Notes: generated by a model from the sequence alone, not told the origin. A DNA stretch of 41,654 nt from Opitutales bacterium (GCA_049598495.1 JBMYNR010000014.1:1-41654), one strand, 5' to 3'; counted from the stretch's first letter, positions 8,199 to 38,216 are shown. Numbers and translations are program-made.

Positions 8199-9700
<1,502 letters not shown>

Positions 9701-9701
<1 letters not shown>

Positions 9702-17617: not shown

Positions 17618-17618
17618 A

Positions 17619-17858
17619 TCAGCCGCCTGTCATTGGAGGAAGGAAAGCGATTGAGTCGCCGTCCTGAAGTTCGGTCTCGTGAGCGCTCAACTCATGATTA
17701 ATGGCCACTTGAATCTGGGTGAACTCGTGGGGAAATCCGTATTGTTCTCTTAGGCTTCCATAGAGCTTCTTGGGGCAAGGATCATCGAGCTGAACGATCT
17801 CACTTCTATGGCCGGCTAGGTCGCCCAGTTGTGCAAAATACAATATGTTAATCTTCAT
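17619..17858 (-). CDS. moaD: Molybdopterin synthase sulfur-carrier subunit
   Basis: ILYFA, VAIN and C-terminal AFLPPMTGG. Confidence 0.93.
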   Translation of the reverse strand: MKINILYFAQLGDLAGHRSEIVQLDDPCPKKLYGSLREQYGFPHEFTQIQVAINHELSAHETELQDGDSIAFLPPMTGG

Positions 17859-18445: not shown

Positions 18446-18915
18446 GAACGCTTATAACCCGACTTTCCACCCGTTTTCTCAACGAGCCGCGTGCATTCAA
18501 TGACGATTCCTTTTGAAGCGGCCTTACACATATCGTAGATCGTGAGTGCGGCGACGCTGCTCGCTGTGAGCGCCTCCATCTCGACGCCCGTTTGGTCGAG
18601 CACCTTCACGCGTGCTTCCACCCGCAAACGCGCTTCATCCACAGGCTGGATCTCAATCTTAACCGACTTGAGATTCAATGGGTGGCAGAACGGGATCAAT
18701 TCGGATGTCTTCTTCGCAGCCATCGTGCCTGCGACAATCGCGGTATCGAGGATCGGTCCTTTCTTCGAATGCCAACTGGCCTCCGTGAGTGTCCGCATAA
18801 TCTCCTCGCCGAGGAATACGAAGGACTCCGCCGTGGCTGTGCGGTCGGTCGCTTCTTTGGCCGAAACATCGACCATTGTCGGTCGCTCGTTTTTGTCGAT
18901 ATGGCTAAACTCCAT
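18442..18915 (-). CDS. moaC: Cyclic pyranopterin monophosphate synthase
   Basis: MVDVSAK, LIPFCHPL, TGVEMEAL, IYDMCKA and KTGGKSG. Confidence 0.95.
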   Translation of the reverse strand: MEFSHIDKNERPTMVDVSAKEATDRTATAESFVFLGEEIMRTLTEASWHSKKGPILDTAIVAGTMAAKKTSELIPFCHPLNLKSVKIEIQPVDEARLRVEARVKVLDQTGVEMEALTASSVAALTIYDMCKAASKGIVIECTRLVEKTGGKSGYKRS

Positions 18916-18928
18916 AAATCAGTGTCAT

Positions 18929-20134
18929 CTAATACCAGGGGAAGAATTCGAATTGGCTGCCAGCAGGATAGCTCTTTTCATCCCTCGGTGGAAGAACGAT
19001 ATAACCATCACTCTCCAGAATTCCAACAAGATCACCTGAATTATTGACCAATTGAGGTGAAATGAGGTTCCCCGGTGACTTTTTCACCGGAAGTAAGACG
19101 GTCATATCGTCACGCGTTTTGGCATCGGTGCGAAGTGTAAGTTCGACCGCCGGGCAGTTCGCCGTCTTCCCCGAGGCGTCGAAGAGCGAGGGGATCACAT
19201 AGTGGTGGAGGCAGGAGAGACTGGAGAGAGGATTTCCGGGAAGTGCAAAAACCGCGGAGTCCTCGTTCGTCCAGAAGCCGAAAGGCTTGCCCGGCTTTTG
19301 CGCAACTCCATGAAAATGACAGGTAAACCCAAGCTCCTGCAGGGCCTCAGGGATAAAATCCTTCTTTCCCATGGAGATACCTCCGCTGATGATGATCACG
19401 TCGTTGTTCTCGAGCAGCAGCTTCAACTCGTTAATACTCTGCGCACAATCATCTTTAAGGTGCACAAATTCCCGGACGTTCAGCCCGATCCGTTCGAGCG
19501 CGGTATCGATCATCAAATGATTCGAGCGGCGTATTTGGTGGGGTTCCGGTTCATCGCAGATGTTGATGAGTTCATCACCCGTGCTCACTACGGCAAGGGC
19601 CGGTTTTCGGGAAACAAGAAGGTCCGCGTAGCCACAGCTTGCGGCAATTGCGGTTTCCCTTGCGCCGATGGTCGCGCCTTCGTCCAGAAGGATGGCATCC
19701 GCCGCACGATCGCTTCCGAGTTTGTGGATGCAATCACCTGCGGCGTGCTCCGTAGGGGACTTGAGCTGCATTTGCGTAGTGTGCGGTCGCGTTGTGGTCT
19801 CATAGGGGACCACGCAATCTGCGTTTTCGGGCAGGATGGCCCCCGTCATAATCTCGGCGCAGGAGAGTGGCCTGCTATCCAGAGTGATCTGCGGGTCACC
19901 TGCCGAACACTCGGCAACAATGTTGAAGAGAGCATTTCCATCGATATCCGAAGCACGAATGGCATAACCATCCATCATCGAGCGGTTGAAAGGTGGAAAA
20001 GGGCGGTCGGAAAGAACCTGCTGGCGTAAGATACGCCCGGCACATTTATCGAGTGGACAAAGAACCTGAGGCATCTTGTTCAGGTTCTCTTGAATCAAGC
20101 GTCGTGCGTCTTCCGGTGTAATCAGCGATTTCAT
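18929..20134 (-). CDS. moeA: Molybdopterin molybdenumtransferase
   Basis: PPFNRSMMDGYA, IMTGA, STGDEL, SGGISMGKKD, KPGKP and LPGNP. Confidence 0.95.
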   Translation of the reverse strand: MKSLITPEDARRLIQENLNKMPQVLCPLDKCAGRILRQQVLSDRPFPPFNRSMMDGYAIRASDIDGNALFNIVAECSAGDPQITLDSRPLSCAEIMTGAILPENADCVVPYETTTRPHTTQMQLKSPTEHAAGDCIHKLGSDRAADAILLDEGATIGARETAIAASCGYADLLVSRKPALAVVSTGDELINICDEPEPHQIRRSNHLMIDTALERIGLNVREFVHLKDDCAQSINELKLLLENNDVIIISGGISMGKKDFIPEALQELGFTCHFHGVAQKPGKPFGFWTNEDSAVFALPGNPLSSLSCLHHYVIPSLFDASGKTANCPAVELTLRTDAKTRDDMTVLLPVKKSPGNLISPQLVNNSGDLVGILESDGYIVLPPRDEKSYPAGSQFEFFPWY

Positions 20135-20181
20135 TCTGAATTTACGTGCAAGCTTGGAATTAATGGGTTTGTTATGCGTCG

Positions 20182-21186
20182 ATGGTCAAGGATAAGAGAG
20201 GGCGCCGCCTCACCGATTTGCGAATATCACTCACGGATCGCTGTAATCTGCGTTGCACATACTGTATGCCAAAAGAGGTCTTTGGTAAAGACTATGTCTT
20301 CCTGAAGAAAAACGAATGGCTGCGCTTCGGTGAGCTGTACGATTTAGTCGCCGCCTTCGTTCAACTGGGAGTTAGGAAGATTCGTTTGACCGGAGGCGAG
20401 CCGCTGCTGAGGCCCGGTCTGAATAAATATATCCACGGACTGAAGCACCTTCATAAGATCGAGGATATTGCTCTTACCACGAACGGGCTGCGTCTCGCTG
20501 AGCGGGTTTCCGAACTGAAAGAAGCGGGCTTAGACCGGATTACAGTGAGCTTGGATGCGCTGGATCCGGAGATTGCAGGTAGAATGAACGGGCTCGGCGT
20601 AAAGCCCAAATCGGTGATCGCAGGAATTGATGCGGCCCTGGATGCGGGTTTTCAAGTTAAGGTGAATATGGTGGTTCAAAGAAGTGTGAATCGCGGCGAA
20701 ATTCTCCCGATGGCACGTTACTTCAAAGACCGGGGCGTGAACTTACGCTTTATTGAGTTTATGGATGTCGGGAATCACAACGATTGGAAAATGGATGAAG
20801 TAGTTCGTGGAACTGAAATCCTGGAGACGGTCGGATCTGAACTGGATTTCGAACCGGTCGATGTCTCCTCCAGTAACGAAGTCGCCAAACGGTATCGCTA
20901 TCTGGACGGCTCTGCCGAATTCGGATTAATTACTTCGGTGACCCAAGCCTTCTGCGGTTCCTGCACACGGGCACGCATCTCAGCCGACGGCCAACTGTAT
21001 ACCTGTCTCTTTGCGAGCAAGGGAATCGACTTGAAGTCGATTCTTCGAGCACCCGACTACCGCGCCGGGAATCTTTTGGATACTCTGGCGGGCTTCTGGG
21101 GGCAGCGTGAAGACCGCTATTCCGAGCTCCGCTCGGAAACGGGTTCTACTGGTGAAAAGGTGGAGATGTCCTATATTGGGGGCTAA
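20182..21186 (+). CDS. moaA: GTP 3',8-cyclase (radical SAM)
   Basis: LRISLTDRCNLRCTYCMP, TGGEPLLR, FCGSCTRARI..TC and C-terminal MSYIGG. Confidence 0.96.
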   Translation: MVKDKRGRRLTDLRISLTDRCNLRCTYCMPKEVFGKDYVFLKKNEWLRFGELYDLVAAFVQLGVRKIRLTGGEPLLRPGLNKYIHGLKHLHKIEDIALTTNGLRLAERVSELKEAGLDRITVSLDALDPEIAGRMNGLGVKPKSVIAGIDAALDAGFQVKVNMVVQRSVNRGEILPMARYFKDRGVNLRFIEFMDVGNHNDWKMDEVVRGTEILETVGSELDFEPVDVSSSNEVAKRYRYLDGSAEFGLITSVTQAFCGSCTRARISADGQLYTCLFASKGIDLKSILRAPDYRAGNLLDTLAGFWGQREDRYSELRSETGSTGEKVEMSYIGG

Positions 21187-21187
21187 A

Positions 21188-22141
21188 TCAGGACGTTTTC
21201 TTTTTCGTCGGCTTCGGCTTCTCCTTAGCCAGTGCCGGTCGCATGGTGCTGGCCACGGATTCACATATCCCGAGAAACGTCTCTTCTGTGATCGAGAGCT
21301 TCTTGTCTTTTGCGTAAGAAATTCCCCAGGTGCGGGTGATCTTTCGGCGCCCTGTAGGAATATGCACCAGACTGCCGGCGTTGATTTCGTTTTCGACGAT
21401 CCAGGATGCGAGGAAGCTGACTCCGTAGTTGATCTTAACCAGCTCTTTGATCGCCTCCATACTCCCCAGTTCGATGTAGTTCTCGAGGAGTAGCTTCTTC
21501 TGCCGGAAAAAATGCTCGATTTGATCAAAGGTGTAACTGCCTTTATTGTATAAAACCATGCGCTCCTGAGCAATTTTGTTCATTTTTGCCGTGCCAATTT
21601 GTGCAAATTCGTGAATCGGTGAGCTCACTAGAATAAGCTCATCGGAAAAAAGTGGCTTTACCTCCACGTCGTTCAACCCATCCGGCGCGACAATAATCGC
21701 CAAGTCGATCTCGTGTTTACGGGTCATTTCGAGCAGTTCATGGGTGTCTGCAGGGGTGATCGTGAGGATGCAGTCAGGGAAGCACTCATTGAACTCCCGA
21801 AGGACGTTAGGAAGTATGTGCTGGCAGGCTGTTGTACTCGCTCCTATGCGCAGGCGCCCGCGCCCCCAATTGGCCCGGTCCTGGATCCGGAGCCGTACCC
21901 CTTGCATCTGATTAAGAATGTTTTGTGCATCTTTATAGAGTTCCTCGCCGTCTTCTGTGATGTTGATTTTTCGCCCCGTTCGCGTGACCAATTGGCAGCG
22001 CAAATCGGTCTCCAAATTTTTTACGGAATGACTAATCGCTGACTGAGTAAGGCTCAGGATTTTTGCGGTTTCAGTGAAACTCCCAGTCTGGACAAGCGTG
22101 CAGAAGGCGAGGAGTTGACGGCTATCGATTGTTTCAAGCAT
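21188..22141 (-). CDS. LysR-family transcriptional regulator
   Basis: N-terminal HTH ([25 protein letters not shown]), GRLRIGAS and EAIKELV; divergent from the nitrate operon. Confidence 0.95.
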
Positions 22142-22154
22142 GAGGGAAATTCAT
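22140..22154. promoter_or_regulatory. Putative LysR box 1 (ATGA-N7-TCAT)
   Basis: ATGAGGGAAATTCAT: a T-N11-A dyad overlapping the LysR start codon; the same motif recurs at 35698. Confidence 0.6.
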
Positions 22155-22222
22155 TCAATTCATTACTACATTTATTTCGTTTATTTGGGAGATGGGTATG
22201 GTCAATGCTAAATTGGCACGCG

Positions 22223-23281
22223 ATGGCGCGACGCAGCACAGACAACGTAACTCAAACACGACAAGGGACACTGGTCCGTCTTGGATACGTGCGTCTGCTC
22301 GACGCGGCCCCGCTGATCATCGCTGACAAGTTGGGCATGTTCCGCGACGCGGGTCTTCACGTAGAACTTTCCCGAGAAGTGGGTTGGGCTACGATTCGCG
22401 ACAAGCTTGCGTTCGGGGCGCTCGATGTGGCTCAAGCGCTGAGCCCCATGCCTCTCGTCATGCAGATGGGAATCAACGTGGCCCAGACCCAGTTGATCAC
22501 TGGAATGGTCCTTAACTGTAACGGGAACGCGATCACACTTTCGATGAAGCTTAGAGAGGAGGGCATTGAAGATGGCAATGGCCTTCGCCGATATATCAAG
22601 AGCGGCTTCCGGCCGAGAAAGCTTGTTTTTGGTGTCGTTTCCCATGCTTCCTCCCATCACTTCATTCTATGCCGCTGGCTCGAGGAACACGGCATCCGTC
22701 CGCATGAGGACGTGATTATTTCTGTGCTCCCGCCGGAGCAGATGGTTCGAAACCTCGCGGCTGAGAATATTGACGGATTTTGTGTCGGCGAGCCTTGGAA
22801 TTCATCCGCAGTTGAAGAGGGGCTGGGATGGGTTGTTGCCACCAGCACCGAAATCGCGGAAGGGTATCCGGAGAAAGTGCTCGCTGCGACGGAGCGCTTT
22901 TATTCCTACCGGGGCCCCGAGTATGTCCAGATGATCGAGGTTTTGAAGGAGGCCTGTGTCATCTGTGACACACCAGACCGACGGGACGAAGTTCTCAACA
23001 TTTTGGCCGCACCCGAATATCTGAACTGCAGCCGTAAAACGCTCGCAAACGCTCTTTCGGGTTCATTTCCCATGGGGGACGGCCGCGTGATTGAAGGCGC
23101 CTTTATCCGATTTAGTGGGGATGAGGTGAACCGACCTGATGCCGACTGGGCCAAGCATATTTACGAAGACCTTCGCCGTTACATGCCCGATGTTGGCTAC
23201 GAGACCGTCTTCAAGCGCTCCATTACAAACGTGTATCGCAGTTCAATTTACGACCAGGCAAACGTTCCTGCCGTGATCTAA
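22223..23281 (+). CDS. Cytoplasmic CmpA/NrtA-family protein, NasS-like nitrate sensor
   Basis: [42 protein letters not shown] and PEKVL; no signal peptide. ATG 22223 was chosen because 22115 overlaps the LysR gene. Confidence 0.8.
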
Positions 23282-23303
23282 TAGACAACTACCAGAAAAT
23301 AAT

Positions 23304-24674
<1,371 letters not shown>

Positions 24675-24700
24675 AAGGATTTTCTATCCAACCACTAACC

Positions 24701-24730
24701 AGCCTCCTTCCCGACGGGAAGGGGGCTTTT
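24701..24730 (+). terminator. Intra-operon hairpin with a short U-tract after nrtA
   Basis: AGCCTCCTTCCC-gac-GGGAAGGGGGCT-TTT. Confidence 0.65.
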
Positions 24731-24769
24731 CGGGTGACAGACCTAATTTTTAACAAACACGAATCTACC

Positions 24770-26398
24770 ATGGCTGAAAAAACAGCAGACGCGATCAAGT
24801 ATAAGATCCTTAAATTCCTAGATGTGACCGGCTTCACCGTTTTCGACCCGATGGTGCGCCTTGCCTTTGGCGAAGAACCAAAGAAGCAGGTCGAGGCGAT
24901 AATGAAGTATTTCGTTACGCCTCTCATCTTCCTGTGCTTCTGCCTTTGGGCTTGGTGGACGGTCGCGCCGAACCACAAGACGAAGTCCGGTGAGGTGCCG
25001 ACGCCCGACGTGGTCGCCAGTGCGGCAAAGATCAATCACACCTTCGCTGCCCGCGAAAAGACTAAGGAATCCGACTTTCTGTTGGTCGATGAGGAGCGTA
25101 TCCAAGCGCTCGTAGAGGTCGAAGCGATGATTGCAGAGAATGAGATCATTCTTGCCGAGTTGAGCGCGAACCTGAAGGAACAGGAGGCCGCTTACGAGGC
25201 ACAGCTCAATGAACGCCTCGCTCCGCTGCAGGCCGAACTGGATGATTTGAAGGCGTTCAACCGCGCCGCTTCCGATGCCCGCAAGGAGTCTATCAGCGCG
25301 ATTGCCACCGAAGTCGAGACAGGCGAGTCCGACTCCGCTTTTCTCGTCGCTGTCATCCGTGAGGACGGTGATGCCAAGGATGCCGAGCGCGCCGCTGAGT
25401 CGGTGATCAAGGACCAGATTGACGACATCCGGTCCGAGAAGTTCAAGCCTATGGAGATCGCCCGCCTTGAGGTGAATGCCGTGGCCGATGAGATCCAGTT
25501 CCTGAAGAAGCGCGTGGATTTTCTTTCCGATGCCAACCGCAGTGTTAAGGTCGAGGAAACAAAGATCAAGCTGGCTGAAACTGAGGAAAATCTCGCCACT
25601 GCAACCACTGCGAAGAAGGCACTGCTCGAAGCCAAGAAGGTTGTGCGGACCGAAGACTCGATCGCACGCCTCGAAGAGCAGCAGTATGCTTCTGCGATGA
25701 CCGTCTACCTGCAGATCAAGCGCAGTCTATTCACTGTTTTCGTAGGCTTTTTCATGGCGGCTTTTATCGCGATTCCAATCGGAGTCCTCTGCGGACTCAA
25801 TCGCATCGCGATGGCCTGTCTCACTCCAATTATATCGGTTTTCAAACCAGTCTCGCCTGTGGTTTGGCTCCTTATCTTCCAGATCATCGTGGGTGCCTTT
25901 TTCCCGGATCCGGAGTCACATCCTTTCTTTCTCTTTTTTAACAGTCTGCCTTTTTTCGGGGGTCTCGGAATCAATCCGGCACTTGTCTTCTCTGCATGCA
26001 CGGTTGCCATGTGCGCGGTATGGCCAGCGCTGGTGAACACCGCTCTCGGCGTATCCTCCATTGACAAGGATCATATTAATGTCGCTCGCGTCCTCCGTCT
26101 CGGCTTCTGGGATCGGCTGACCAAGATCATCATCCCTTCGGCGCTTCCTCTGGTTTTCGCCGGTTTGCGTATCTCGCTCGGTGTGGGCTGGATGGTGTTG
26201 ATTGCTGCGGAGGCGCTGTCGTCCTCCGACGGTCTCGGTAAGTTTGTTTGGGATGAATACCAGAACGGTTCGTCCTTCTCCTTCGCCAATATTCTCTACG
26301 CCTGCTTCGTCGTTGGGATCATCGGCTTCCTGCTCGACCGTATGATGATTGTTCTGCAGCGCTTCGTCGCCTTCGACGGCGGCGGAACCTCTCTATAG
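24770..26398 (+). CDS. nrtB: Nitrate ABC transporter permease with a large helical insertion
   Basis: [18 protein letters not shown], the EAA-like loop NVARVL, and [20 protein letters not shown] 24770 is preferred. Confidence 0.9.
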
Positions 26399-26399
26399 C

Positions 26400-26427
26400 C
26401 TAACTTCTAGATTCTAACTTATAACTT
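26400..26427. repeat. Degenerate heptamer tandem repeat
   Basis: CTAACTT-CTAGATT-CTAACTT-ATAACTT, between nrtB and the first ATPase gene. Confidence 0.6.
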
Positions 26428-26436
26428 CTTAGAATT

Positions 26437-27360
26437 ATGGCTTATTTAGAAATCGACAACGCGTCCATCGGCTTCGGTCCGCATGACAACCGCTATGAGG
26501 TGCTCACGGATATTAACCTCTCGGTCGAAGAGAACGAATTTATCGCTGTGGTGGGCTTTTCAGGTGCAGGGAAGTCGACGTTGATCTCGATGCTTGCGGG
26601 ATTGCTCTCTCCGGACAAGGGCGAGATTCGTATTCATGGTGAGGTGATTAAGGAGCCGTCTCCACGGCTTGGAATCATGTTCCAGAATTACTCGCTTCTG
26701 CCTTGGCTGACGGTGTTCGAGAATGTTGCACTGGCTGTGCAGCAGGTTTTCCCTAAATTCTCTAGGGCCGAACTCAAGGAGCATGTTGAGAAGTATGTGG
26801 CGATGGTGAAGCTCTCGCCCGCACTTGGTAAAAAGCCGTCCGAACTCTCCGGGGGGATGCGCCAACGTGCCTCACTTGCGCGGACACTGGCCATGCAGCC
26901 GGAGATTCTCCTGCTCGACGAACCGCTGTCAGCACTCGATGCCCTCACACGCGCTGAAATTCAGGACGAGATTATCAACATTTGGGAAAACGATAAACGG
27001 ACGATCGTCATGATTACCAATGACGTGGACGAAGCCGTTCTTATGGCCGACCAAATCGTGCCTCTTACGATGGGTCCATCCGCCACGCTTGACGAACCGT
27101 TCCCGGTTAACCTCGAGCGCCCGCGTAACCGCACTACGCTCAACACCAATCAGGAGTTCCGCCGACTTCGTAATGACATCTCAAAATACATGGTTACACT
27201 CAACGAAGAGACTAAAGCGCTTAGTGCCCATGAAGCGGTCGCCGACCTGCCCGACATGATGCCGCTTGATTTCACAAGCCTACCAGTCGGACCGGCACGC
27301 GGCCGGCGGCGTCGGAAGGTCGCTGACGTAATGAACCCGACCGTCACCTTTTTTAAGTAA
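26437..27360 (+). CDS. nrtC: Nitrate ABC transporter ATP-binding subunit 1 (NrtC-like, no fused regulatory domain)
   Basis: [25 protein letters not shown] and LLLDEP; the H-loop reads ITND. Confidence 0.88.
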
Positions 27361-27379
27361 ATAAAAACCGGATAGAAAA

Positions 27380-28234
27380 ATGTTAAGTGAACGCTACGTA
27401 GATATTTCCGATCTTGTTAAAGCTTACCCGAACCCATTCGGAGATGAGATAAAGGTCGTCGACGGCTTTAATCTCAAAGTCCCGCAGGGTGATGTCGTCT
27501 CGATTATCGGCCACTCCGGCTGTGGTAAGTCCACTGTGCTCAATATGATCGCCGGCCTCATCCCAATCTCAGCTGGCGGCATCATTGTTGCAGGCAAAGA
27601 GATTGATGGCCCGGGCCCGGATCGTGCGGTTGTTTTTCAAGCACCCTGTTTGCTCCCATGGATGACCGCTTTCGGCAATGTCATGATCGGTGTGAAGGTC
27701 AGCTACCCGCACGTCTCCAAGGCAGAGCGTACGGAGATGGTTGAAGCCGCACTCAGCATGGTGGGCCTCAAGGACTCCATGTATAAATACCCGCGTGAGA
27801 TGTCGGGTGGAATGCAGCAGCGAGTGGGTATCGCCCGAGCCATCGCGCTGAAGCCGCGTATGCTGCTTCTCGACGAGCCACTCGGCCGCCTCGACTCGCT
27901 CACGCGGATGGAGCTCCAGGATGTGATCCTTCGCATTCTTGATAAGGAAAAGATTACCACGATGATCATCACTCACGATCCTGATGAAGCCGTCTATATG
28001 TCGGACCGGATTTGCATGATGACGAACGGTCCGCATGCAAAAGTCGGTGAGGTCATGGAAATCGAGTTTGAAAGGCCCCGTGATCGCGCGGCCATAGTGG
28101 AAACCGATCAGTTCTACGAATATCGCCGTCGCCTTCTTGCCTTCCTTGATGAGTGCGAGGCTGAGAAGGAAGAACGTCGTATGCTCAAGGCTTCCAAAAC
28201 GGAGGAAAAAGAGCCAGTTCGCAAGGCTAGCTAG
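27380..28234 (+). CDS. nrtD: Nitrate ABC transporter ATP-binding subunit 2
   Basis: [26 protein letters not shown] and MMTNGP. Confidence 0.88.
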
Positions 28235-28252: not shown

Positions 28253-29995
28253 ATGTCCGAATCTTTCAGCACGACCCAGAAGCAGTATCTCGAGGGTTTT
28301 TTCGCAGGCGTCAACCAGCGTCCGCAGATGCCCTTTCTTGGCCAAAACACCGCGGGTCAGTTCACCGGGGATCCGGCCGAGGCGGTTGAGGAGACAGTCT
28401 ACGGAACACCCGTTGATGAGCTCTGCAAAGAAGAGCAGATCAAGCACGAGCAGAACGGTCTCGATGTATGGGACACCATCGTCAAGGACTCGGAGATCGG
28501 TCAATTCCCGCAGGGTGGGGACCTTTTTCGGTATAAGTTCTACGGGCTTTTTCATGTGAAACCCGCGCAGGACTCGCTCATGTTACGATGTCGTATCGCT
28601 GGTTGCGCGCTAAAGGCGCATCAAATGGTGGGTCTCGCGGAGATCGCGGAAGACTGGGGTGGCGGCTATGCCGACATCACGACGCGTGGCAACTTCCAGG
28701 TGCGGGAGATCATGCCAGGCGACACGGTGTCGACACTAATCAAACTGGATGAGCTCGGACTTACCTCAAAGGGCTCTGGCGCAGACAACCTTCGGAATGT
28801 TACGGCGAGCCCGACTAGTGGCTTCGATCCTGATGAAGTGCTCGATGTGCTGCCTTATGCAAAATCCATGCACCATTATATTTTAAACAACCGCGACCTC
28901 TACGGTCTGCCACGTAAGTTCAATATCTCCTTTGATAACGGTGGCCGCGTCTCTGTTTGTGCCGATACGAACGACATCGCCTTTTATGCCGTGCGGGTGG
29001 GGGAAGGGCAGGTGGTGGAGCCAGGAGTTTACTTCAGAGTTCAACTCTGCGGGATCACGGGGCATAAGCAGTTCGCCTCCGATTGTGGACTTCTGATCAA
29101 ACCGGATCAGGCCGTACCTCTCGCTGCAGCCATGATCCGCGTCTTCATCGAGAACGGCGACCGCACGAACCGGAAAAAGGCACGTCTGAAATACTTGGTA
29201 GATAATTGGGGTGTTGAGAAATTCCTCGAAGAGACGAGTAAGAAACTTGCGTTTGAGCCGACGCGTCTCGCGCTTGAAAATTGTGAACCCCGAATGCCGG
29301 TCTACAAGCATGGCCACGTGGGTGTCTACAATGAGCGTGAAGAAGGCCTAAACTATGTTGGCGTCGTTATTCCTGTGGGGCGGATGCTGCCGGATCAAAT
29401 GCGCGCCATCGCCGCCATTGCCTCGAAGTATGGACGCGGAGATATTCGCCTGACTGCTTGGCAGAATCTGATCATTCCCGGAATTAGGGACGCAGATCTC
29501 GATTCGGTGAAAAAGGCGATCACTGCGGCTGGTTTCCACTACAAGAATACGACGATCTCGGGCGGTCTTGTTGCTTGCACCGGTAATGTCGGCTGCAAGT
29601 ATGCAGCCAGCAACACGAAGAGCCACGCACTCCAGCTCACCAAGTTCCTAGAATCTGAAATCGAATTAGATCAACCGATCAATATTCATCTCACCGGGTG
29701 CCATCACTCCTGCGCACAACACTACATCGGCGATATTGGCTTGATCGGTGCCAAGGTCAAGGTGGGGGAAGAGAGCGTGGAGGGTTACGCGGTCGTTCTT
29801 GGCGGAGGTGTGGACGATCAACAGGCCATCGCCCGCGAGATCTTTCCCGGCACAGCTTTTGAGGAACTCAAGCCCCTGATTCTCCGGGTCTTGAATACTT
29901 ACCTCGCGCAACGCCAAGAAAAGGAAACTTTCTGGCAATTCACCCGTCGGCACAGTGCCGACGAATTGAAGAGTCTTTTCTCTGTGGCTGCGTAG
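28253..29995 (+). CDS. nirA: Siroheme nitrite reductase, NirA family
   Basis: [22 protein letters not shown], and the siroheme/[4Fe-4S] motif CTGNVGC...TGCHHSC; lies in a nitrate operon. Confidence 0.9.
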
Positions 29996-30019: not shown

Positions 30020-31609
30020 GTGTCCTCTACGCTCACAGTCGAAGATTCTCCCCTGGAGATTCTTTTGAAGGAACAAGGGACCCTCCGGACTCCGGTTGGA
30101 CTCTTTTCCGAAGAGCACGACGCTGGTCTCGTTGAGCCCGAGCAGGCGCAGTTTTACAAACGATTGCTGCCGCTTTCAAAACCGGGCGAGGGCGAGCAAT
30201 ATGCCTTTAAAGTCGACCTGGACAAGTGTACGGGCTGCAAGGCATGCGTATCAGCCTGCCACAGTTTGAACGGGCTCGACGAGAACGAGACATGGCGGGA
30301 TGTCGGCACCATTCATGGAGTGGATTTTTCGGGGGCTTCATATACCCAGACGATTACCACAGCCTGCCACCACTGTGCCGATCCGGGATGTCTGAATGGC
30401 TGCCCTGTCCTGGCGTACGAGAAGGATGAGGATAGCGGGATTGTCCGTCATTTGGATGACCAGTGCATCGGTTGCCAATATTGCGCCCTTAAGTGCCCTT
30501 ACGATGTTCCCAAGTACTCGAAGAGCTTGGGCATTGTTCGCAAATGCGACATGTGCCATAGCCGCTTAGCGGATGGAGAAGCTCCCGCCTGCGCTCAAGC
30601 CTGCCCAACGGAGGCAATTAGTATTACTATCGTGAATACGGCTGCGGTCAGTGAACTGGCAGTTGGCGGAAAGGGCTTTCTTCCGGCAGCACCCGAACCG
30701 GGCTATACGATACCGACCACTCAATATGTGACCGAGAAGACGATACCGAAAAATGTGGAGGCGGCCGACTTGCGTGCGCTCCGCCCAGAGCACGCTCACT
30801 TCCCCCTGGTCTTTATGCTCATACTGACTCAATTGTCCGTCGGTTTGTATCTTTTCTCCATGATCGATCCGGAGTCCGCGACATCGGTCGGCACAAGAGT
30901 CATAGCATTTTTGGCGATGGTTCTAGGGCTCGGCGCCTCGACTTCACATTTGGGACGTCCACTTGGTGCGTGGCGTGCCTTCCTTGGCTTGAAACGTTCG
31001 TGGTTAAGCAGGGAGATTGTAGTGTTCGGGATGTTCTCGATGGCGGCGGCGGTTTACACGCTCTCGGCTTTCCTTGAAGTAATTCCCTTGGGTATTGCCA
31101 CCTTTTCGGCGATCTCTGCCGCGGTCCTCGGCGTTGGGGGTTTGGTCACCTCTGTTATGATCTATCACGACACCCAGCGCCCGTTCTGGAATCTTCGGCT
31201 TGGAGGAGCGAAGTTCTTCGGCAGTGCGCTCTGTCTTTCTGCATCGGCATATTTTCTCGTGGCGACGTTCAATGGGGCATCTCCGACCTGGGCGATGTTC
31301 CTGATGGCCGTGGGTCTGATGCTGAAACTCGTTTTGGAAGGTGCCACGCTCACCAATTGGAATGAACGGGGAATGTCGCCGGCACGCAAGTCAGCCATGC
31401 TCCAACTGTATCCGCTGCGATTGCTCGTGATCAGTCGTTTCATCCTGGCGGCGATTGTATTGCTCCTTACGAGTACCTTAATCCTGCAACCTATGAACTG
31501 GATCATGGCGGCCATCGTGTCTGCAGCCCTGCTCCTGTCTGAACTACTCGAGCGTACGTTGTTCTTTAAAGCTGTCGCTGCTCCAAAGATGCCGGGAGGT
31601 GTCTACTAA
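30020..31609 (+). CDS. Four-cluster Fe-S protein fused to a DmsC/YnfH-type membrane anchor
   Basis: [30 protein letters not shown] and KCDMC..PAC..CP, then PLVF..TQ, HLGRP, SWLSRE and ~8 TM helices. GTG start. Confidence 0.88.
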
Positions 31610-33837
31610 TGAGCCTACTTGAGATAGCCAAGGATCAGATGCGTATTCGCGCTCATGACGGTGTGCTGACCGAACGCCTCGTCCAGGATCCGGCGTCGCA
31701 TGGGTTGGGACGGCTGCCGAAATCCGTGAAACCGGATGCGACCGTGAACAGTATCTGTGGTTTCTGCGGAACGGGCTGCTCACTCAAGGTGCACTTAAAG
31801 GATGGTGAAGCGGTAAATTTGAGCGCGCAGACAAGCTATCCCGTTAATATCGGAATGGCTTGCCCGAAGGGCTGGGAATCATTGACGCCTCTGAAGGCAA
31901 AGGATCGGGCGACCACACCTTTACTTCGTAATGAGTATGGTGAGTTGGAGCCTGTGTCCTGGGAGGTGGCAATGGATGCATTCGTGCGCAACTTCAAGCT
32001 CACTCTGAACGAGCACGGTAGTGGTGCGGGTGCGTTTCTAAGCACGGGTCAGATTGTAACCGAGGAAATGGCCTTCCTTGGTGCGCTGGCAAAACTTGGC
32101 ATGGGCATGCTTCATGGCGATGGGAACACACGCCAGTGCATGGCGACCGCGGTTGTGGCTTATAAGCAATCCTTCGGCTACGATGCGCCGCCATTTTCCT
32201 ACAAGGATTTTGAGGAATCGGATGTTCTCGTGTTTGTTGGCGCCAACCCCTGCATCGCACACCCGATCATGTGGCAGCGTGTGATGCTCAATAAGAGGAA
32301 CCCGGAGATCATCGTGGTGGACCCGCGAAAGACCGAAACCGCGATGGCGGCCACCACGCATCTGCCGATTGCGCCCAAGTCTGATCTCACGCTTTTTTAC
32401 GGGATCGCGGCTCGTCTGATCGAGCTGGATTTGATCGACAAGGATTTCATCGCCTCGCACACCAACGATTTTGAGGCCTTCAGGGCATTTCTTAAGTCGC
32501 ACAATATCGATCGCGCATCTGAGCTGAGCGGTATCGATGCTTCTGAGATTGATCGCATCGCCCGACTGATTGGATCAGGCAAACGAGTCTCCTTCTGGTG
32601 GACGATGGGGGTTAATCAGAGCTATGAGGGAGTTCGTCTGGCCCAGTCGTTGATCAACCTCGCTTTGATGACTGGAAACATCGGAAAGCCTGGGACGGGT
32701 GCGAATTCGATTACGGGTCAGTGTAATGCGATGGGTTCCCGTCAGTTCAGCTTCACCACGAGCCTTCCTGCGCTGCGCGAGTTCACGTCAGCGAAAGACC
32801 GCCAGGAGGTTGCGGATATTCTCAATATCCCGGTTGAGCGTTTCCCTACTGAAAACAGCTATGCTTACAACGAGATCATCGAGGCAATTGACCGTGGGGA
32901 GATCAAGGCGCTCTGGATGGTCGCCACGAATGCAGGGCATTCATGGATCAACCAGAAAAAATTTAGGAGGATTCGTGAGAAGCTCGATTTCTTCGTTGTG
33001 CAGGATATGTATGGCAACACGGACACAGCGCAGATTGCCGACCTTGTTTTGCCTGCGGCTGGTTGGGGTGAAAAAGATGGCGTCTTTATTAATTCGGAGC
33101 GTCGTTTAGGACTGACCCGCAAAGTCCGAAAAGCGCCCGGCCAGGCGCTCTCTGATTTCAATATCTTCCGCTTGATCGCGCACTATTGGGGCTGCGCCGA
33201 TTTGTTCGAGGAATGGTCGTCGCCTGAGGCGGTTTTCCATATTCTTGCGCGACTCAGTAAAGGTCGCCCCTGTGATTTCACGGCTGTGGAAGGCTATGAT
33301 TTCCTCGATCAAAGCGGTGGGGTGCAATGGCCCTTTCCAGCTTCGCTTGGAGTGAAAGTAAAGAGTGGAGAGTACGAATTGGCGAAGGAACGTCGTCTCT
33401 TCGAGGATGGGGAATTCTATCATGCGGACGGGAGGGCGCGATTTGTCTTTGAAGAACCGCGGAGCATGCCCGAGCCTCCGGATGAATCCTATCCCTTCAT
33501 TCTTTTAACAGGCCGGGGCACTTCCTCGCAGTGGCACACGGGTACCCGTACGAGAAAATCGGACGTCCTGCAGAAGCTCTATCCCAAATCCCCGTATGTA
33601 GAGATTAGCCCAGTTGATGCGGAACGCCTCGGTATCAAGCCCGAAGATTTGGTTTTTGTTCGTTCGAGACGCGGAACCGCCAGGGTCAAGGCGGTTGTGC
33701 TTGGGAGCTTGCAGGAGGGTCAGGTCTTCATGCCGATGCATTACCCGGAAACGAATCAACTCACGCTGGATGCCTTCGATCCGTATTCCAAGGAGCCTTC
33801 TTACAAAGCCTGCGCCGTCAAAATTGAGAAGGCCTAG
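31609..33837 (+). CDS. nasA: Mo-bisPGD nitrate reductase catalytic subunit, assimilatory (NasA/NarB) type
   Basis: [19 protein letters not shown] (Mo-ligand Cys), [24 protein letters not shown] and EPSYKACAV; no Tat signal and no C-terminal BFD domain. Confidence 0.88.
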
Positions 33838-33872: not shown

Positions 33873-35609
33873 ATGACAAACGCACCATATATTCCAGATA
33901 GCGCACCCTTCAGCGAAGATCAACGCGCATGGCTGAACGGATACCTTGCGGGGCTTTACTCGTCCGATGGCAACGCGGACAACTCCGCGCCCGTTGCTGC
34001 CACTCCGGTTACGATTCTTTTCGGCTCGCAGACGGGAACCGCAGAGACACTCAGTAAAAAAGCGGCCAAGCAACTCAAGGCCTCGAATTGCGAACCGACC
34101 ATCGTGGATATGGGCGATATCTCGGCGGAAGAACTCCAGGCCGTGGAGAACCTATTGATTATTACGAGCACTTACGGTGAAGGAGAGCCGCCCGATAATG
34201 CTCAATCACTCCATGCGGCCTTGATGAGCGACGGAGCTCCGAAACTAAAGGCAACCCGCTTTTCCGTGATGGGCCTGGGCGATTCGTCTTATCCGGATTT
34301 CTGTCAATGCAGCAAGGAGTTCGATGCGCGACTGGAGGCTCTCGGCGCACAACGTTTTGCGCCAATGGTCGAAGCGGATGGTGATCCGGATGATGCTTTT
34401 TCTGAGTGGCTCGGGGCTGTCCAAGGAGTATTGGGCGAAGCCGGTTCGAGCGCAGCAGCCGTCGTTGAGTCTGAAGGCGACAGTAATGAGCCGGAGTTTC
34501 ACAAGAAGAACCCATTTCCCGCTACATTACTCAAGACAGAGAATCTAAACAAGGAAGGCTCGTCGAAGGTGACACACCATGTTGAGATTTCCCTCGAAGA
34601 CTCGGGACTCGATTACGAAGTCGGTGATGCGCTGGGGGTGTATCCCGAAAATAATGCACGACTCGTCGATGAGATTATCGAAGCGGCGGGCTTTGCGCCC
34701 GAGGAGTCGGCACCCGTTCCGGCTGGTGACGATTTACCTGTTTTTGAGGCACTTCGCTTCCACTACGATGTGAGCGTGCTCACGGAAGCATTTCTTTTGG
34801 CATGCGCCCGTTTGACGAAAAACGAGGAGCTGCATTCGATCGTTTCTGATGAATCCAAGCGGGAAGAGTATCTTTCCGGTAGGGGGCTCGTCGATCCGAT
34901 CATCGATTTCGGGGTGAAATTCCCAACAACCGAATACCTCGTGGCCCCGCTCAAGAGTCTCAATCCGCGTCTCTATTCAATCTCATCCAGCCCTAAGGCG
35001 CACCCGGGCGAAGTTCATTTGACGGTAGGAAAGGTGACTTACGATCTGCATGGGCGCGAGCGCATGGGTGTTTGCTCTACCTATCTTGCTGAGCACAAGC
35101 TCGATCGTCCGGTGAGAATTTACGTGCACGCAAACAAGGCCTTCCGACTCACAGAGAATGACGATGCGCCGGCGATCATGATCGGACCGGGCACCGGGAT
35201 TGCACCATTCCGAGCATTCCTTGAAGAACGGGAAGCGCGCGGCGCGAAGGGGAAGAATTGGCTATTTTTCGGCGACCAGCATGCGGCCACTGATTTTCTC
35301 TATCAGGATCAAATCGACTCGTGGATGAAGTCCGGCCTGTTGACGAAACTCGATACCGCCTTCTCTCGCGACCAGCAAGAAAAGATCTATGTGCAGAACC
35401 GTATCATTGAGCATGCCAATGAATTCTTCCAGTGGCTGGAAGAGGGCGGCAGCATTTACATCTGCGGGGATGCCAGTCGTATGGCGAAGGACGTCGATGC
35501 TGCCATCCACAAAGCGGTTGAACTGGCGGGGAATAAGTCTGAAGACGAGGCCAAGGCCTACGTAGAGGCGTTAAAGAAAGAGAAGCGTTACCTTCGCGAC
35601 GTCTATTGA
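33873..35609 (+). CDS. CysJ-like NAD(P)H diflavin reductase (flavodoxin + FAD/NAD domains)
   Basis: FGSQTGTA, STYGEGEPP, LGDSSY, RLYSISSS, GVCSTYL, GPGTGIAPFR, YICGDA and RYLRDVY. Confidence 0.92.
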   Translation: MTNAPYIPDSAPFSEDQRAWLNGYLAGLYSSDGNADNSAPVAATPVTILFGSQTGTAETLSKKAAKQLKASNCEPTIVDMGDISAEELQAVENLLIITSTYGEGEPPDNAQSLHAALMSDGAPKLKATRFSVMGLGDSSYPDFCQCSKEFDARLEALGAQRFAPMVEADGDPDDAFSEWLGAVQGVLGEAGSSAAAVVESEGDSNEPEFHKKNPFPATLLKTENLNKEGSSKVTHHVEISLEDSGLDYEVGDALGVYPENNARLVDEIIEAAGFAPEESAPVPAGDDLPVFEALRFHYDVSVLTEAFLLACARLTKNEELHSIVSDESKREEYLSGRGLVDPIIDFGVKFPTTEYLVAPLKSLNPRLYSISSSPKAHPGEVHLTVGKVTYDLHGRERMGVCSTYLAEHKLDRPVRIYVHANKAFRLTENDDAPAIMIGPGTGIAPFRAFLEEREARGAKGKNWLFFGDQHAATDFLYQDQIDSWMKSGLLTKLDTAFSRDQQEKIYVQNRIIEHANEFFQWLEEGGSIYICGDASRMAKDVDAAIHKAVELAGNKSEDEAKAYVEALKKEKRYLRDVY

Positions 35610-35712: not shown

Positions 35713-35801
35713 GTTCAATTCGTTTCAAATGAATACAATTGGCACAGATGGTGTTACTAAACATTTCGGGAAAAGGCACTCTTTCCAACAACAAACTAGA
35801 A

Positions 35802-37037
35802 ATGAATACAGTATATAAACTCACTACTATGGCAGCCCTCGTGGCTGTTAACACAACCGGCCTTCTGGCCGATTCTATCGAGTCCGCCCTCGACGACTCC
35901 AAAGCAAAGCTTTCCGAGGCGGTTCCGGGCAAATTCTCGATCAACTCCCGCGTGCGCTACGAGGTTTTTGACGTGGATAATGGCAATCCAGCCCTTGACC
36001 GCGACGGAACTTCGCTCCGTGTCCGCTATGGCTACACTACGCCGAATTTCGAAGGATTCACAGCGATGGTTGAAGGCGAGACTTTAACGCGCCTCGGTGG
36101 TGATCCTGCAGACATACACCCGCTTGACGATGCCGGTGACGGCACCGATCTAAACCAACTCTGGGTGCAGTATGCTGACGCGGACAATGGTAAAGTTAAG
36201 GTAGGACGCCAGATTTACGCACTTGATGACCAACGTTTTATCGGTCATGTTGGATGGCGCCAAAATATCCAGGTTTTTGATGCCGCTACCTTCGACTATA
36301 CTGGTGTTGATAAAGTCTCCGTGAAGGGCTTCTTTATCGATGAACGTCATCTTGTGGGCGGAACGCATAATAAAACGGATACATGGGGCCTGAATGTATC
36401 CTACGCTTTTGCTCCTTCATTTAAGCTTACAGGTTTCTATTATGATATCGAGGGTGAAGATGCGGCTGCTACAACAAGTCAGACTATTGGTCTGCGCGCC
36501 ACCGGTTCCTACAAGATTGAGGATGTGAAGCTGGCTTACTCTGTTAGCATCGCAGAGCAGGAAAATGACGGTTCACCGCTTGCGGACTATGATGCCGGTT
36601 ACTTTGCCGGTGATCTGGCTGCGACATTCAGTGGCCTTACCCTTGGTGGTGGCTTTGAGATTCTTGAGCCGAGTTTCCGCACACCGTTTGCGACGGTCCA
36701 TAAGTTCAATGGTTTTGCCGATGCACTGCTTCCTCTGGGAGGTTTCGCGGAGGGACTTGAGGATATGTATGTCTATGCGGGCTACAAAATCCCTGTGGGT
36801 AACGGCATTGCTTTTAAAGTTATCTATCACTGGTTCGATGCTGAAGATTCGGCTCCTGGTCGGGATGGTGGTGAAGAACTCGACTTTGTCGCTTCATACA
36901 AAATCAATAAGTATTTCAACATACTAGCTAAGTATGGAAGTTACGAATCCGATGGTGGTCTTACTGCGCCTGACCCAGCTTGGTCTGGTCGAGCTGATAA
37001 GGATATGTTCACCCTCGAGCTCAATTTCGTATATTAG
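35802..37037 (+). CDS. Outer-membrane beta-barrel porin, alginate-export-family-like
   Basis: Signal peptide, RVRYE, KVGRQ..LDDQRFIGHVGWRQN, FRTPFATVHKFNG, and a C-terminal aromatic residue (ELNFVY). Confidence 0.8.
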   Translation: MNTVYKLTTMAALVAVNTTGLLADSIESALDDSKAKLSEAVPGKFSINSRVRYEVFDVDNGNPALDRDGTSLRVRYGYTTPNFEGFTAMVEGETLTRLGGDPADIHPLDDAGDGTDLNQLWVQYADADNGKVKVGRQIYALDDQRFIGHVGWRQNIQVFDAATFDYTGVDKVSVKGFFIDERHLVGGTHNKTDTWGLNVSYAFAPSFKLTGFYYDIEGEDAAATTSQTIGLRATGSYKIEDVKLAYSVSIAEQENDGSPLADYDAGYFAGDLAATFSGLTLGGGFEILEPSFRTPFATVHKFNGFADALLPLGGFAEGLEDMYVYAGYKIPVGNGIAFKVIYHWFDAEDSAPGRDGGEELDFVASYKINKYFNILAKYGSYESDGGLTAPDPAWSGRADKDMFTLELNFVY

Positions 37038-37062
37038 GTTTAGGCGTTATTGTTTAGGTTTG

Positions 37063-37092
37063 AGCGAGGTCGCTACGGCGGCCTCGCTTTTT
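37063..37092 (+). terminator. Intrinsic terminator after the porin gene
   Basis: AGCGAGGTCGC-tacg-GCGGCCTCGCT-TTTT. Confidence 0.8.
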
Positions 37093-37136
37093 CGTTGTCG
37101 GAAATCCCGTATCTCTGTGCACTGAAAGGCAGCCGA

Positions 37137-38216
37137 ATGTCCTACAACGCACGAATCGCAGAATGCTACCAAGAGGTCTCACTCAGTCGTGAGGAGCTGG
37201 CCTACTATGCACGGCATATCTTGCTGCCAGGTGTCGGTCTGGACGGGCAACGAAAGCTGAAAGCGGCTCGTGTTCTTGTTGTGGGTGCAGGAGGGCTCGG
37301 GTGCCCCGTGTTGCAGGGCCTCGCGGGCGCAGGTGTCGGGCAGATCACGGTGGTCGATGGCGATCAAGTCTCGAAGTCAAATTTATCCCGGCAATGGCTC
37401 CACGACTATGCCGAGGTCGGGCGAAATAAGGCAGACTCCGCAGCCGCGAGTATCGAGAAACGGAATCCGTTTATTTCCGTGCTGGCTGTGGCTGAGATGC
37501 TGGCGGAGACTAACGCCCGGACGCTCATTGAGTCCTGCGATCTTGTGGTCGATGCCACAGACGATCTCGAGGTTCGTTATCTAATTGATTCGGTCTGTGC
37601 GGCTCAGGGTCGTCCGTGGATTCATGCGGCGCTCTACCGAGAGTCCTCTCAGATGACCGTTTTCTGGGCGTCATGTGGCGCGACCTTTCAGAGTCTCTAT
37701 CCGGACCCTTCAATTGCGCCTTCCTGCTCAGGGGCCGGGATGTTGGGTGCGAGCGCCAGCCTGACGGGCAACCTGCAAGCCTTGGAAGCAATCAAACTCA
37801 TTACCGGCACGGGGAGACCAACTGTTGGCGAAGTGGTCTCGATTAACTCGGCCGATCTTGTGATGGAGCGATTCCGCATGGCTGGCATTTCTCAACCCAA
37901 ACCGATCACATCGGAGGCGGCCTCCTCATCACCATGGGCACTTTCGGCCAGCGAGCTAAAACAAGCCCTCTCAATACACCAATCGCTGACTCTAGTCGAT
38001 CTTCGCAAAGAAGGAGAGGCATTGGTTCAGAATTCCATCCGCATGACAGAGGAGCAAGTGCTGGAAGCGGGCCTTCCTGAACAGGTCTCAGGGAGGACGG
38101 TGCTTGTCTGTGAAAAGGGGATTATCAGTGCGATGCTTGCTGATGCGCTATCCCGTTATCACGAACAACTTTACTTTCTCGAAGGCGGCACGCAGGCCTT
38201 CGAGGAACTAGCCTAA
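37137..38216 (+). CDS. moeB: MoeB/ThiF adenylyltransferase with a C-terminal rhodanese-like domain
   Basis: YARHILL..GQRKLK, VGAGGLG, D..SNLSRQ, DATD and PSC..GMLG; C-terminal VLVCEKG and LEGG. Confidence 0.85.
   Translation: MSYNARIAECYQEVSLSREELAYYARHILLPGVGLDGQRKLKAARVLVVGAGGLGCPVLQGLAGAGVGQITVVDGDQVSKSNLSRQWLHDYAEVGRNKADSAAASIEKRNPFISVLAVAEMLAETNARTLIESCDLVVDATDDLEVRYLIDSVCAAQGRPWIHAALYRESSQMTVFWASCGATFQSLYPDPSIAPSCSGAGMLGASASLTGNLQALEAIKLITGTGRPTVGEVVSINSADLVMERFRMAGISQPKPITSEAASSSPWALSASELKQALSIHQSLTLVDLRKEGEALVQNSIRMTEEQVLEAGLPEQVSGRTVLVCEKGIISAMLADALSRYHEQLYFLEGGTQAFEELA

Follow-up and report, generated by a model that had tools for sequence, protein, structure and literature searches.

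In a 41,654-nucleotide (nt) stretch of DNA from an Opitutales bacterium (GCA_049598495.1 JBMYNR010000014.1:1-41654; the whole stretch is called the window below), a nitrate-assimilation operon contains two coupled genes that are the subject of this report. The first encodes a ferredoxin domain fused to a DmsC/SoeC-type membrane anchor (hereafter the fusion) and the second a Nas-type molybdoenzyme (hereafter Nas). The fusion–Nas pair is a real, conserved and uncharacterised unit. Its two products very probably form a complex that faces the cytoplasm, and quinol is reasonably likely to be the electron donor of this Nas. The genome from which the window comes (1.75 Mb, 95% complete) belongs to a marine member of the Verrucomicrobiota whose closest named relatives among database matches are Opitutales/Puniceicoccaceae, e.g., Lentimonas, Coraliomargarita, and Thalassobacterium. 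The pair is laid out as follows:

30020..31609, plus strand: fusion gene, 529 amino acids (aa), GTG start
31595..31611, plus strand: translational coupling, GGAGG and then TAATG
31609..33837, plus strand: Nas/Nap-type molybdenum-bis(pyranopterin guanine dinucleotide) (Mo-bisPGD) catalytic subunit without a twin-arginine translocation (Tat) signal, 742 aa, ATG start

The TAA stop codon of the fusion gene (31607-31609) and the ATG start codon of Nas (31609-31611) have one base in common, which gives TAATG at 31607-31611, and a GGAGG motif is found nine bases upstream, at 31595-31599. An initial annotation of the window had described a fused DmsB–DmsC-type gene coupled to a Nas-type gene through this TAATG, and the open reading frames, the Pfam domains and the overlap are as it had described them. 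Its claim that neither protein has a Tat signal also holds: the open frame extends upstream of the start codon by only 8 codons for the fusion (537 versus 529 aa) and 13 codons for Nas (755 versus 742 aa), and a twin-arginine motif with a hydrophobic stretch is absent from both N-termini, so that a signal peptide is excluded for both. The same annotation had put forward checks on whether the Fe-S domain lies inside, on co-folding of the two subunits, and on phylogenetic distribution, the results of which, given below, agree with its picture of the pair.

Relatives of the fusion were collected in a genome scan with one genome per species, which yielded 561 confirmed stretches; the loci analyzed are the best 80 of these 561, all of which are verrucomicrobial by context. 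In every one of the 75 loci that hold both genes, the fusion gene is immediately upstream of Nas on the same strand. Where the locus extends at least 1500 nt past the fusion, as it does in 71 cases, Nas always lies downstream, and in 69 of these it is within 1 kb by the best high-scoring segment pair (HSP); a split HSP and an additional copy of Nas account for the two outliers, L070 and L073. Similarly, among 201 high-quality Verrucomicrobiota genomes sampled evenly, the window's genome included, 17 contained the fusion; the same 17, and no others, contained a Nas of at least 52% identity, the two genes being on different contigs in one of them (G086). In the other 14 sampled genomes with Nas matches, identity is only 29–38%, and several of these matches contain an in-frame TGA, as in selenocysteine formate dehydrogenases. 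Cultured genera among the database matches to the pair are Coraliomargarita, Cerasicoccus, Rubritalea, Oceaniferula, and Chthoniobacter, with species such as Cerasicoccus arenae, Rubritalea marina, Oceaniferula spumae, and Chthoniobacter flavus. In databases, the fusion bears generic names only, such as ‘DmsC/YnfH family molybdoenzyme membrane anchor subunit’ or ‘formate dehydrogenase iron-sulfur subunit’.

Families and domains were called with Pfam and NCBIfam profiles and their cut-offs. Nas contains the Pfam domains Molybdop_Fe4S4 (PF04879), Molybdopterin (PF00384), and Molydop_binding (PF01568). Its best NCBIfam matches are haloarchaeal NasA (NF041323, 486 bits for a cut-off of 1000), the formate dehydrogenase alpha subunit (Fdh-alpha, 477 bits), NasC (NF047855, 414 bits for a cut-off of 1100), and NapA (372 bits). 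Because it falls below every curated NCBIfam cut-off, the catalytic subunit is classed, on profile scores, as Nas/Nap-type but not as a member of any curated equivalog family. Among solved chains, NapA of Desulfovibrio desulfuricans comes closest (380 bits), and Cys177-Met178, Met333, and Arg378 of Nas align with Cys140-Met141, Met308, and Arg354 of that protein; they are invariant in the alignment of 64 Nas sequences. We take these NapA positions to be active-site residues, and on that basis Cys177 would presumably be the molybdenum ligand. Cysteines C50, C53, C57, and C85, assigned to the iron-sulfur cluster FS0, are likewise invariant in the alignment. In addition, Nas has an N-terminal extension of about 44 residues that is conserved in all 64 partners of the fusion, with invariant Gly18, Thr21, Pro28, Gly32-Leu33-Gly34, and Pro37. 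This extension is absent from the diflavin-fused NasN-type enzymes (the alignment starts at residue 45), from mature NapA (it starts at residue 41), and from a standalone Nas with 52% identity in genome G076.

The fusion consists of an N-terminal extension (residues 1-59), a ferredoxin domain with four [4Fe-4S] clusters (about residues 60-206), a linker, and a DmsC/SoeC-type membrane domain of eight helices (about residues 255-529). Pfam recognizes Fer4_11 (73.5 bits, residues 112-202) and DmsC (PF04976, 64 bits for a cut-off of 22.3, residues 260-516). Sixteen cysteines, arranged in four motifs, are invariant across the alignment of 89 relatives, in which identity goes down to 40%. An AlphaFold2 (AF2) model built from this 89-row alignment (predicted local distance difference test score, pLDDT, 89.8; predicted template modelling score, pTM, 0.88) contains eight long membrane helices, in agreement with the eight hydrophobic helices of a hydropathy scan. 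In Foldseek searches, the N-terminal half resembled FdnH, ArrB, and PsrB, and the membrane half resembled ActC of the alternative complex III and PsrC.

The orientation of the anchor was deduced from the hydropathy scan, the AF2 model, and alignment-based counts of lysine plus arginine (Lys+Arg) in the loops of 70 family members. Loops on the side of the Fe-S domain contain a median of 13 such residues (range 10–18), and those on the opposite side a median of 2 (range 0–6); the Fe-S side is the richer one in 70 of the 70 members. Escherichia coli DmsC, taken as a control since its partner subunits are exported, has the opposite bias, with 2 on the Fe-S side versus 6 on the other. An anchor of Azospirillum, encoded beside a Tat-less molybdoenzyme and xsc, is again richer on the Fe-S side (10 versus 0). 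Because positive charge is on the Fe-S side throughout the family and the bias of DmsC is reversed, the prediction is well supported that the anchor is inserted N-in/C-in, upside-down relative to E. coli DmsC, and that the Fe-S domain, and hence Nas, is cytoplasmic.

The membrane domain retains the residues attributed to quinol oxidation in DmsC. Ser62, His65, Ser82, and Glu87 are listed as quinol-site residues of E. coli DmsC, with Arg271 as a conserved residue of transmembrane helix (TM) 8 (Calisto and Pereira, PMC8076601), and replacement of His65 is reported to block quinol oxidation (PMC8076601). In a collinear alignment, His65, Ser82, Glu87, and Arg271 of DmsC, which count as quinol-site or gate residues (five lower in the current gene model, i.e., H60, S77, E82, and R266) correspond to His310, Ser327, Glu332, and Arg512 of the fusion. 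The first three are invariant in the 89 sequences and Arg512, in TM8, is kept in at least 90% of them. Moreover, a relative from another class that is only 36% identical to the fusion keeps the quinol-site residues, the equivalent of Arg512, the 16 cysteines, and the charge bias, and the motif HLGRP..AWRA..SSWLSRE is common to the fusion and the SoeC-like protein of Azospirillum. In the deduced topology, His310, Ser327, and Glu332 are located at the cytoplasmic ends of TM2 and TM3, beside the Fe-S domain, where they form a putative quinol site. The quinone itself is probably menaquinone, because MenB and MenD score above their cut-offs in the window's genome and genes of the futalosine pathway (PF02621) were not found in it.

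Nas (64-row alignment) was co-folded with residues 1-250 of the fusion (89-row alignment), together with three controls, and judged against a mark that is reached by 116 of 157 solved complexes and by 2 of 215 mismatched pairs. The pair obtained a score of 0.74 (runs of 0.74, 0.86, and 0.63) versus 0.35 for the best control, with contact agreement of at least 70% between runs and a partner pLDDT of at least 79. The predicted contacts join residues 81-90 of Nas, around the FS0 cysteine Cys85, to residues 69-85 of the fusion, which hold the first Cys motif; this corresponds to the canonical FS0–FS1 junction. Residues 14-40 of Nas are also at the predicted interface, and the model suggests that the extension of about 44 residues clasps the Fe-S domain. 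Since complexes of this type (FdnGH, PsrAB, and ArrAB) have been solved, the pass may partly reflect these look-alikes and is to be read as likeness, not as proof of binding.

From these features, the following mechanism may be proposed. Nas would be membrane-bound and cytoplasm-facing, docked on the fusion's four-cluster ferredoxin domain via its FS0 face and N-terminal extension, and would reduce nitrate to nitrite in the cytoplasm. Menaquinol would be oxidized at the His310/Ser327/Glu332 site, at the cytoplasmic ends of TM2 and TM3, and electrons would pass from FS4 to FS1, then to FS0 and molybdenum, if the flow runs in the direction we infer. [quoted passage not shown] Reduction of nitrite, which takes six electrons, would be a separate step, carried out by a NirA-family nitrite reductase and a CysJ-like NADPH diflavin reductase, by analogy with CysJ–CysI. 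Both of the latter are encoded in the same operon, the surroundings of which are as follows:

16690..21186: molybdenum cofactor genes; MOSC, MoaE, MoaD, MobA, MoaC, and MoeA on the minus strand, MoaA on the plus strand
21188..22141, minus strand: LysR-type regulator, divergent from the operon
22115..28234, plus strand: nitrate ABC transporter (Pfam, NCBIfam)
22115-23281 and 23304-24674, plus strand: two NrtA-like binding proteins
24734-26398, plus strand: NrtB permease, long
26437-27360 and 27380-28234, plus strand: NrtC/D ATPases
28253..29995, plus strand: NirA-family sirohaem nitrite reductase, 580 aa (NF007126, 868 bits; cut-off 523)
33873..35609, plus strand: CysJ-like NADPH diflavin reductase, 578 aa (TIGR01931, 651 bits)
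35739..37037, plus strand: porin-like outer-membrane protein inside the operon (Pfam)
37050..38216, plus strand: MoeB/ThiF-family adenylyltransferase, for molybdopterin synthase activation (Pfam, NCBIfam)

Elsewhere in the window's genome, a second CysJ gene is next to and divergent from a bona fide CysI gene (TIGR02041, 764 bits); the CysJ-like gene of the operon is therefore an extra paralogue, dedicated to the operon and the probable donor for NirA. The system would probably comprise two modules, one leading from quinol through the fusion to Nas and the other from NADPH through the CysJ-like protein to NirA, with NirA taken as the partner of the diflavin reductase. In the 57 loci with the complete set of four genes, the fusion–Nas pair is fixed, and NirA and the CysJ-like gene are arranged around it in five different orders:

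NirA-fusion-Nas-CysJ: 17 loci, the window's own clade
CysJ-NirA-fusion-Nas: 16 loci
NirA-CysJ-fusion-Nas: 15 loci
fusion-Nas-NirA-CysJ: 6 loci
fusion-Nas-CysJ-NirA: 3 loci

The CysJ-like gene adjoins NirA in 40 of these 57 loci. Where the cluster is split, it stays with NirA, away from the pair, in three of the five genomes examined (L083, L085, and L086). In addition, operons of Oceaniferula and Rubritalea (L065 and L079) consist of a major facilitator superfamily (MFS) transporter gene, a kinase gene, the fusion, and Nas, accompanied by a LysR gene in L065 only, and have neither NirA nor CysJ. Finally, genome G076 contains the pair without a NirA orthologue, and its only CysJ gene adjoins a CysI-like gene.

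Several observations nevertheless weigh against quinol as the donor, besides the look-alikes of the co-fold. The CysJ-like gene is in the same operon, and in 17 of the 57 four-gene loci, those of the window's clade, it comes directly after Nas and not beside NirA. A NirA orthologue and a CysJ-like gene are both present in 15 of the 16 other sampled genomes that carry the pair, and co-occurrence therefore cannot separate the two donors. In Mycolicibacterium smegmatis, the CysJ-type diflavin module of NasN feeds a Nas-type subunit directly (PMC7816997). In G076, the Nas copy nearest to that of the window (52% identity) lies at a distance of 12 kb from the fusion, with an NAD(P)H-flavoprotein-type gene nearby, and the copy adjacent to the fusion has 43% identity. 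As for the quinone, no MenA was detected in the assembly, which is 95% complete and in which the sole UbiA-family match is a haem O synthase; MenA may be encoded in the unassembled 5%, or the prenyltransferase may be unusual. Biochemical or genetic data on any member of the family were not found in the literature.

In a different account, Nas is membrane-tethered and fed by NADPH: the CysJ-like protein would supply NirA and, via the four-cluster domain, Nas as well, and the DmsC-type domain would be a tether (e.g., beside the nitrate transporter) with a structural or regulatory quinone site. The position of the CysJ-like gene in the window's clade, its co-occurrence with the pair, and the transfer from diflavin to Nas demonstrated by NasN are all in keeping with it, as is the frequency of diflavin-fused Nas enzymes, which are common in Actinomycetota and Pseudomonadota. 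We consider it unlikely, however. Quinol-site residues that are invariant over 89 sequences and retained in the 36%-identical relative are hard to explain for a passive tether, operons with transporter, fusion, and Nas exist that contain no flavoprotein gene, and the CysJ-like gene goes with NirA when the cluster splits. Likewise, G076 has the pair, yet its sole CysJ is a neighbor of a CysI-like gene, and the NasN-type subunits, which are 33–38% identical to the window's Nas, have no N-terminal extension.

A dual-entry enzyme, in which quinol (through the anchor) and NADPH (through the CysJ-like protein acting on the ferredoxin domain) both feed Nas, or in which electrons from NADPH reach equilibrium with the quinone pool through the module, would accommodate the presence of the four genes together in most genomes. 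Four-cluster-plus-anchor modules work in both directions, since SoeABC reduces quinone and DmsABC oxidizes quinol (PMC6335251, PMC8076601). This account is less parsimonious, and we hold it to be more doubtful still. It is highly improbable that the molybdoenzyme is not a nitrate reductase, or that the complex is exported or periplasm-facing. The NasA, NasC, and NapA scores are below their cut-offs and that of Fdh-alpha nearly equals that of NasA, but the Nap/Nas-type Cys-Met, Met, and Arg positions, whose roles we presume from NapA, are invariant, and the neighbors in every arrangement are genes for nitrate transport, nitrite reduction, and the molybdenum cofactor. Export, for its part, conflicts with the lack of room for a signal peptide and with the positive-inside bias of 70 out of 70 relatives.

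A quinol-fed Nas of this kind would be a complex iron-sulfur molybdoenzyme-like module, most like SoeABC turned to a reductive task, with a plausible mechanism. The pair has the Mo-bisPGD subunit with FS0 and the 16-Cys, four-cluster domain of such enzymes; the anchor domain with its putative quinol-site residues is present, and the anchor would bind quinol in a complex with the other two parts. By its sequence features, the module is not a member of DmsABC, SoeABC, NarGHI, NapAB/GH, or NasN. We judge slightly better than even the chance that an N-side, cysteine-ligated Nas-type enzyme coupled to quinol via an inverted fused ferredoxin::DmsC/SoeC anchor constitutes a fourth wiring class of bacterial nitrate reductases.

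SoeABC, studied in Ruegeria pomeroyi and Allochromatium vinosum, is the closest characterized analogue. It is a membrane-bound Fe-S molybdoenzyme that faces the cytoplasm and oxidizes sulfite there, with an NrfD/DmsC-like, haem-free anchor (PMC6335251, PMC8076601). A generically annotated three-gene molybdoenzyme set on a plasmid of Azospirillum sp. TSH58 (L103, 3999-8725), beside the sulfoacetaldehyde acetyltransferase gene xsc, encodes a Tat-less catalytic subunit and an inward DmsC-family anchor; from its architecture and xsc, we infer that it is SoeABC. Its SoeC-like protein is a better BLASTP match to the membrane domain of the fusion (E = 1e-6) than E. coli DmsC is (E = 0.002). SoeA, however, belongs to another catalytic clade (24% identity over 254 residues between the Azospirillum SoeA-like protein and Nas), the genes around Nas concern nitrate and not sulfite, and SoeABC passes electrons from sulfite to quinone, whereas the proposed direction here is from quinol to nitrate; SoeB and SoeC are moreover separate proteins, whereas the corresponding parts are fused in the window.

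E. coli DmsABC and YnfFGH also combine a four-cluster subunit with a PF04976 anchor that has the quinol-site His/Ser/Glu and the TM8 Arg. They differ in that DmsA is Tat-exported (SRRGLV in the N-terminus) and of another catalytic clade, the charge bias of the anchor is opposite, and DmsB and DmsC are separate; the window's proteins also stay below the corresponding equivalog cut-offs (TIGR02951 DmsB, 131 bits versus 214; TIGR02166 dmsA_ynfE, 123 versus 778). NarGHI shares with the module as proposed a cytoplasmic orientation, quinol as the donor, nitrate reductase activity, and a four-cluster subunit. NarG is Asp-ligated, and the dihaem b anchor NarI has its quinol site on the periplasmic (P) side, which makes the enzyme electrogenic. 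In contrast, the window's anchor is DmsC-type, and the narH model gives 41 bits versus a cut-off of 524. A Nap-type enzyme can be quinol-fed via a ferredoxin-type protein and a membrane protein (NapGH). NapA, however, is a periplasmic enzyme that depends on Tat, NapH belongs to an anchor type other than DmsC/NrfD, and the sole match to a Nap accessory protein is a weak one to the napF model (22 bits).

Among assimilatory enzymes, NasA, NasC, and NarB are, like the window's Nas, cytoplasmic Cys-ligated Mo-bisPGD enzymes with FS0 encoded in nitrate-assimilation operons. Standard accounts have them soluble, with NAD(P)H-flavoproteins, ferredoxin, or flavodoxin as donors. The window's Nas, for which the genomic evidence suggests a membrane partner, differs from them by its four-cluster::anchor fusion partner and its extra N-terminal extension. 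NasN of M. smegmatis (MSMEG_4206) resembles the operon in associating a Nas-type subunit with a CysJ-type FMN/FAD/NADPH module for assimilation (PMC7816997), but the two parts form one chain with no membrane part, whereas they are encoded by separate genes in the window.

The initial annotation had proposed a cytoplasm-facing quinol:nitrate oxidoreductase. The predicted complex, its inward-facing orientation, the retention of the DmsC quinol residues, and the conservation of the pair as a unit speak for it in part, and quinol would be the likely donor. Its background statement, according to which Nas enzymes are soluble and DmsBC modules generally serve exported enzymes, was incomplete, since cytoplasm-facing anchored molybdoenzymes exist (SoeABC and NarGHI) and the diflavin-fused NasN has been characterized (PMC7816997). 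In textbook and recent schemes, assimilatory N-side Cys-type reductases take their electrons from NAD(P)H, ferredoxin, or flavodoxin, and quinols serve only respiratory enzymes (PMC13381448, PMC7331816). Wells et al. state that the Fdh/Nas/Aio/Nap clade lacks an association with the canonical four-cluster or anchor subunits (PMC7331816), and a 2026 paper that classifies reductases by P or N side and by Cys or Asp ligand assigns low-potential donors to N-side Cys-type reductases, and not the quinols of the respiratory types (PMC13381448). Both thus state the opposite of the quinol-fed, anchored Nas inferred here. No description of a quinol-linked or anchored Nas was found in the full-text literature, in which most subscription journals are not covered.

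Other features of related clusters were noted. Porin-like homologues trail the cluster in loci L002, L007, L015, L024, and L034, and LysR genes also adjoin the pair in L065 and L018. In L065 (5054-6847) and L079 (5096-6838), the gene between the MFS nitrate transporter gene and the pair encodes a PP2C phosphatase::Ser/Thr kinase fusion, which may regulate the transporter. A distant verrucomicrobial nitrate cluster (L104, G076:C1:430500-450400) has two Nas-type genes, the standalone one with 52% identity and no N-terminal extension and another with 43% identity behind the 36%-identical fusion, as well as NrtABCD, a Pyr_redox_2+BFD reductase, a multihaem cytochrome c, and a globin. This globin recalls the NasC–Flp–globin system reported to occur in Bradyrhizobium. 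Candidate look-alike fused clusters are listed by Atlas in Planctomycetota, Pseudomonadota, Acidobacteriota, Actinomycetota, and Chloroflexota, and a tblastn search of plasmids returned split DmsBC and SoeBC-like sets only, with no fused form. The verrucomicrobial-type cluster is also carried by bins titled ‘uncultured Bifidobacterium sp.’ (L048, 7.5 Mb) and ‘Yoonia sp.’ (L005, 2.4 Mb), the labels of which look wrong or the contigs mis-binned.

Two apparent triple fusions were set aside as evidence. The one-member family P0361 (1157 aa), a ferredoxin–anchor–Nas candidate, has an unmatched middle of 160 residues and seems to be a gene call with a frameshift. P0277 (EukProt g10243.t1, 2189 aa) joins a NirA-like part, the fusion (45% identity), Nas (61%), and an MFS domain, and is most likely a eukaryotic gene model drawn over contaminating verrucomicrobial DNA.

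Within the window, the NrtB permease is unusually long (554 aa): its transporter domain covers residues 346-540 only, and the N-terminal 340 or so residues have no Pfam match, although relatives align over the full length at 46–50% identity. The molybdenum cofactor genes beside the operon form a complete set (MOSC protein, MoaE, MoaD, MobA, MoaC, MoeA, MoaA, and MoeB). No second relative turned up in the 1.75-Mb genome when it was searched with the Nas protein, and the cofactor pathway may therefore be kept mainly for this enzyme. Rfam at its gathering thresholds gave no match in the window.

The window also encodes respiratory complexes. An alternative complex III-like set comprises a cytochrome c7-like protein (4141-4794), an Fe-S subunit of 1120 aa (4812-8174), an NrfD-type protein (8199-9701), a cytochrome c (10241-10894), and a 423-aa protein without a Pfam match (10900-12171). 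It is followed by a cbb3-type oxidase with CcoN (12969-14441), FixO (14441-15133), and a dihaem-type cytochrome c (15133-15909), and the region is flanked by a P-type ATPase (1645-3627) and a TauE-family protein (15984-16706). A second haem-copper oxidase is encoded elsewhere in the genome.

If the proposed wiring is true, the first two electrons for nitrate assimilation would come from the menaquinol pool and NADPH would be spent on the nitrite step only; when oxygen is scarce, the enzyme could also serve as an outlet for surplus quinol, with nitrate as the acceptor. More generally, a quinol-fed Nas would change the accounting of the electron and energy costs of nitrate assimilation for abundant marine and soil Verrucomicrobiota, and matches to ‘nasA’ in metagenomes could no longer be read as purely assimilatory and soluble. 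It would also widen the repertoire of inverted anchor modules, which has so far rested on SoeABC.

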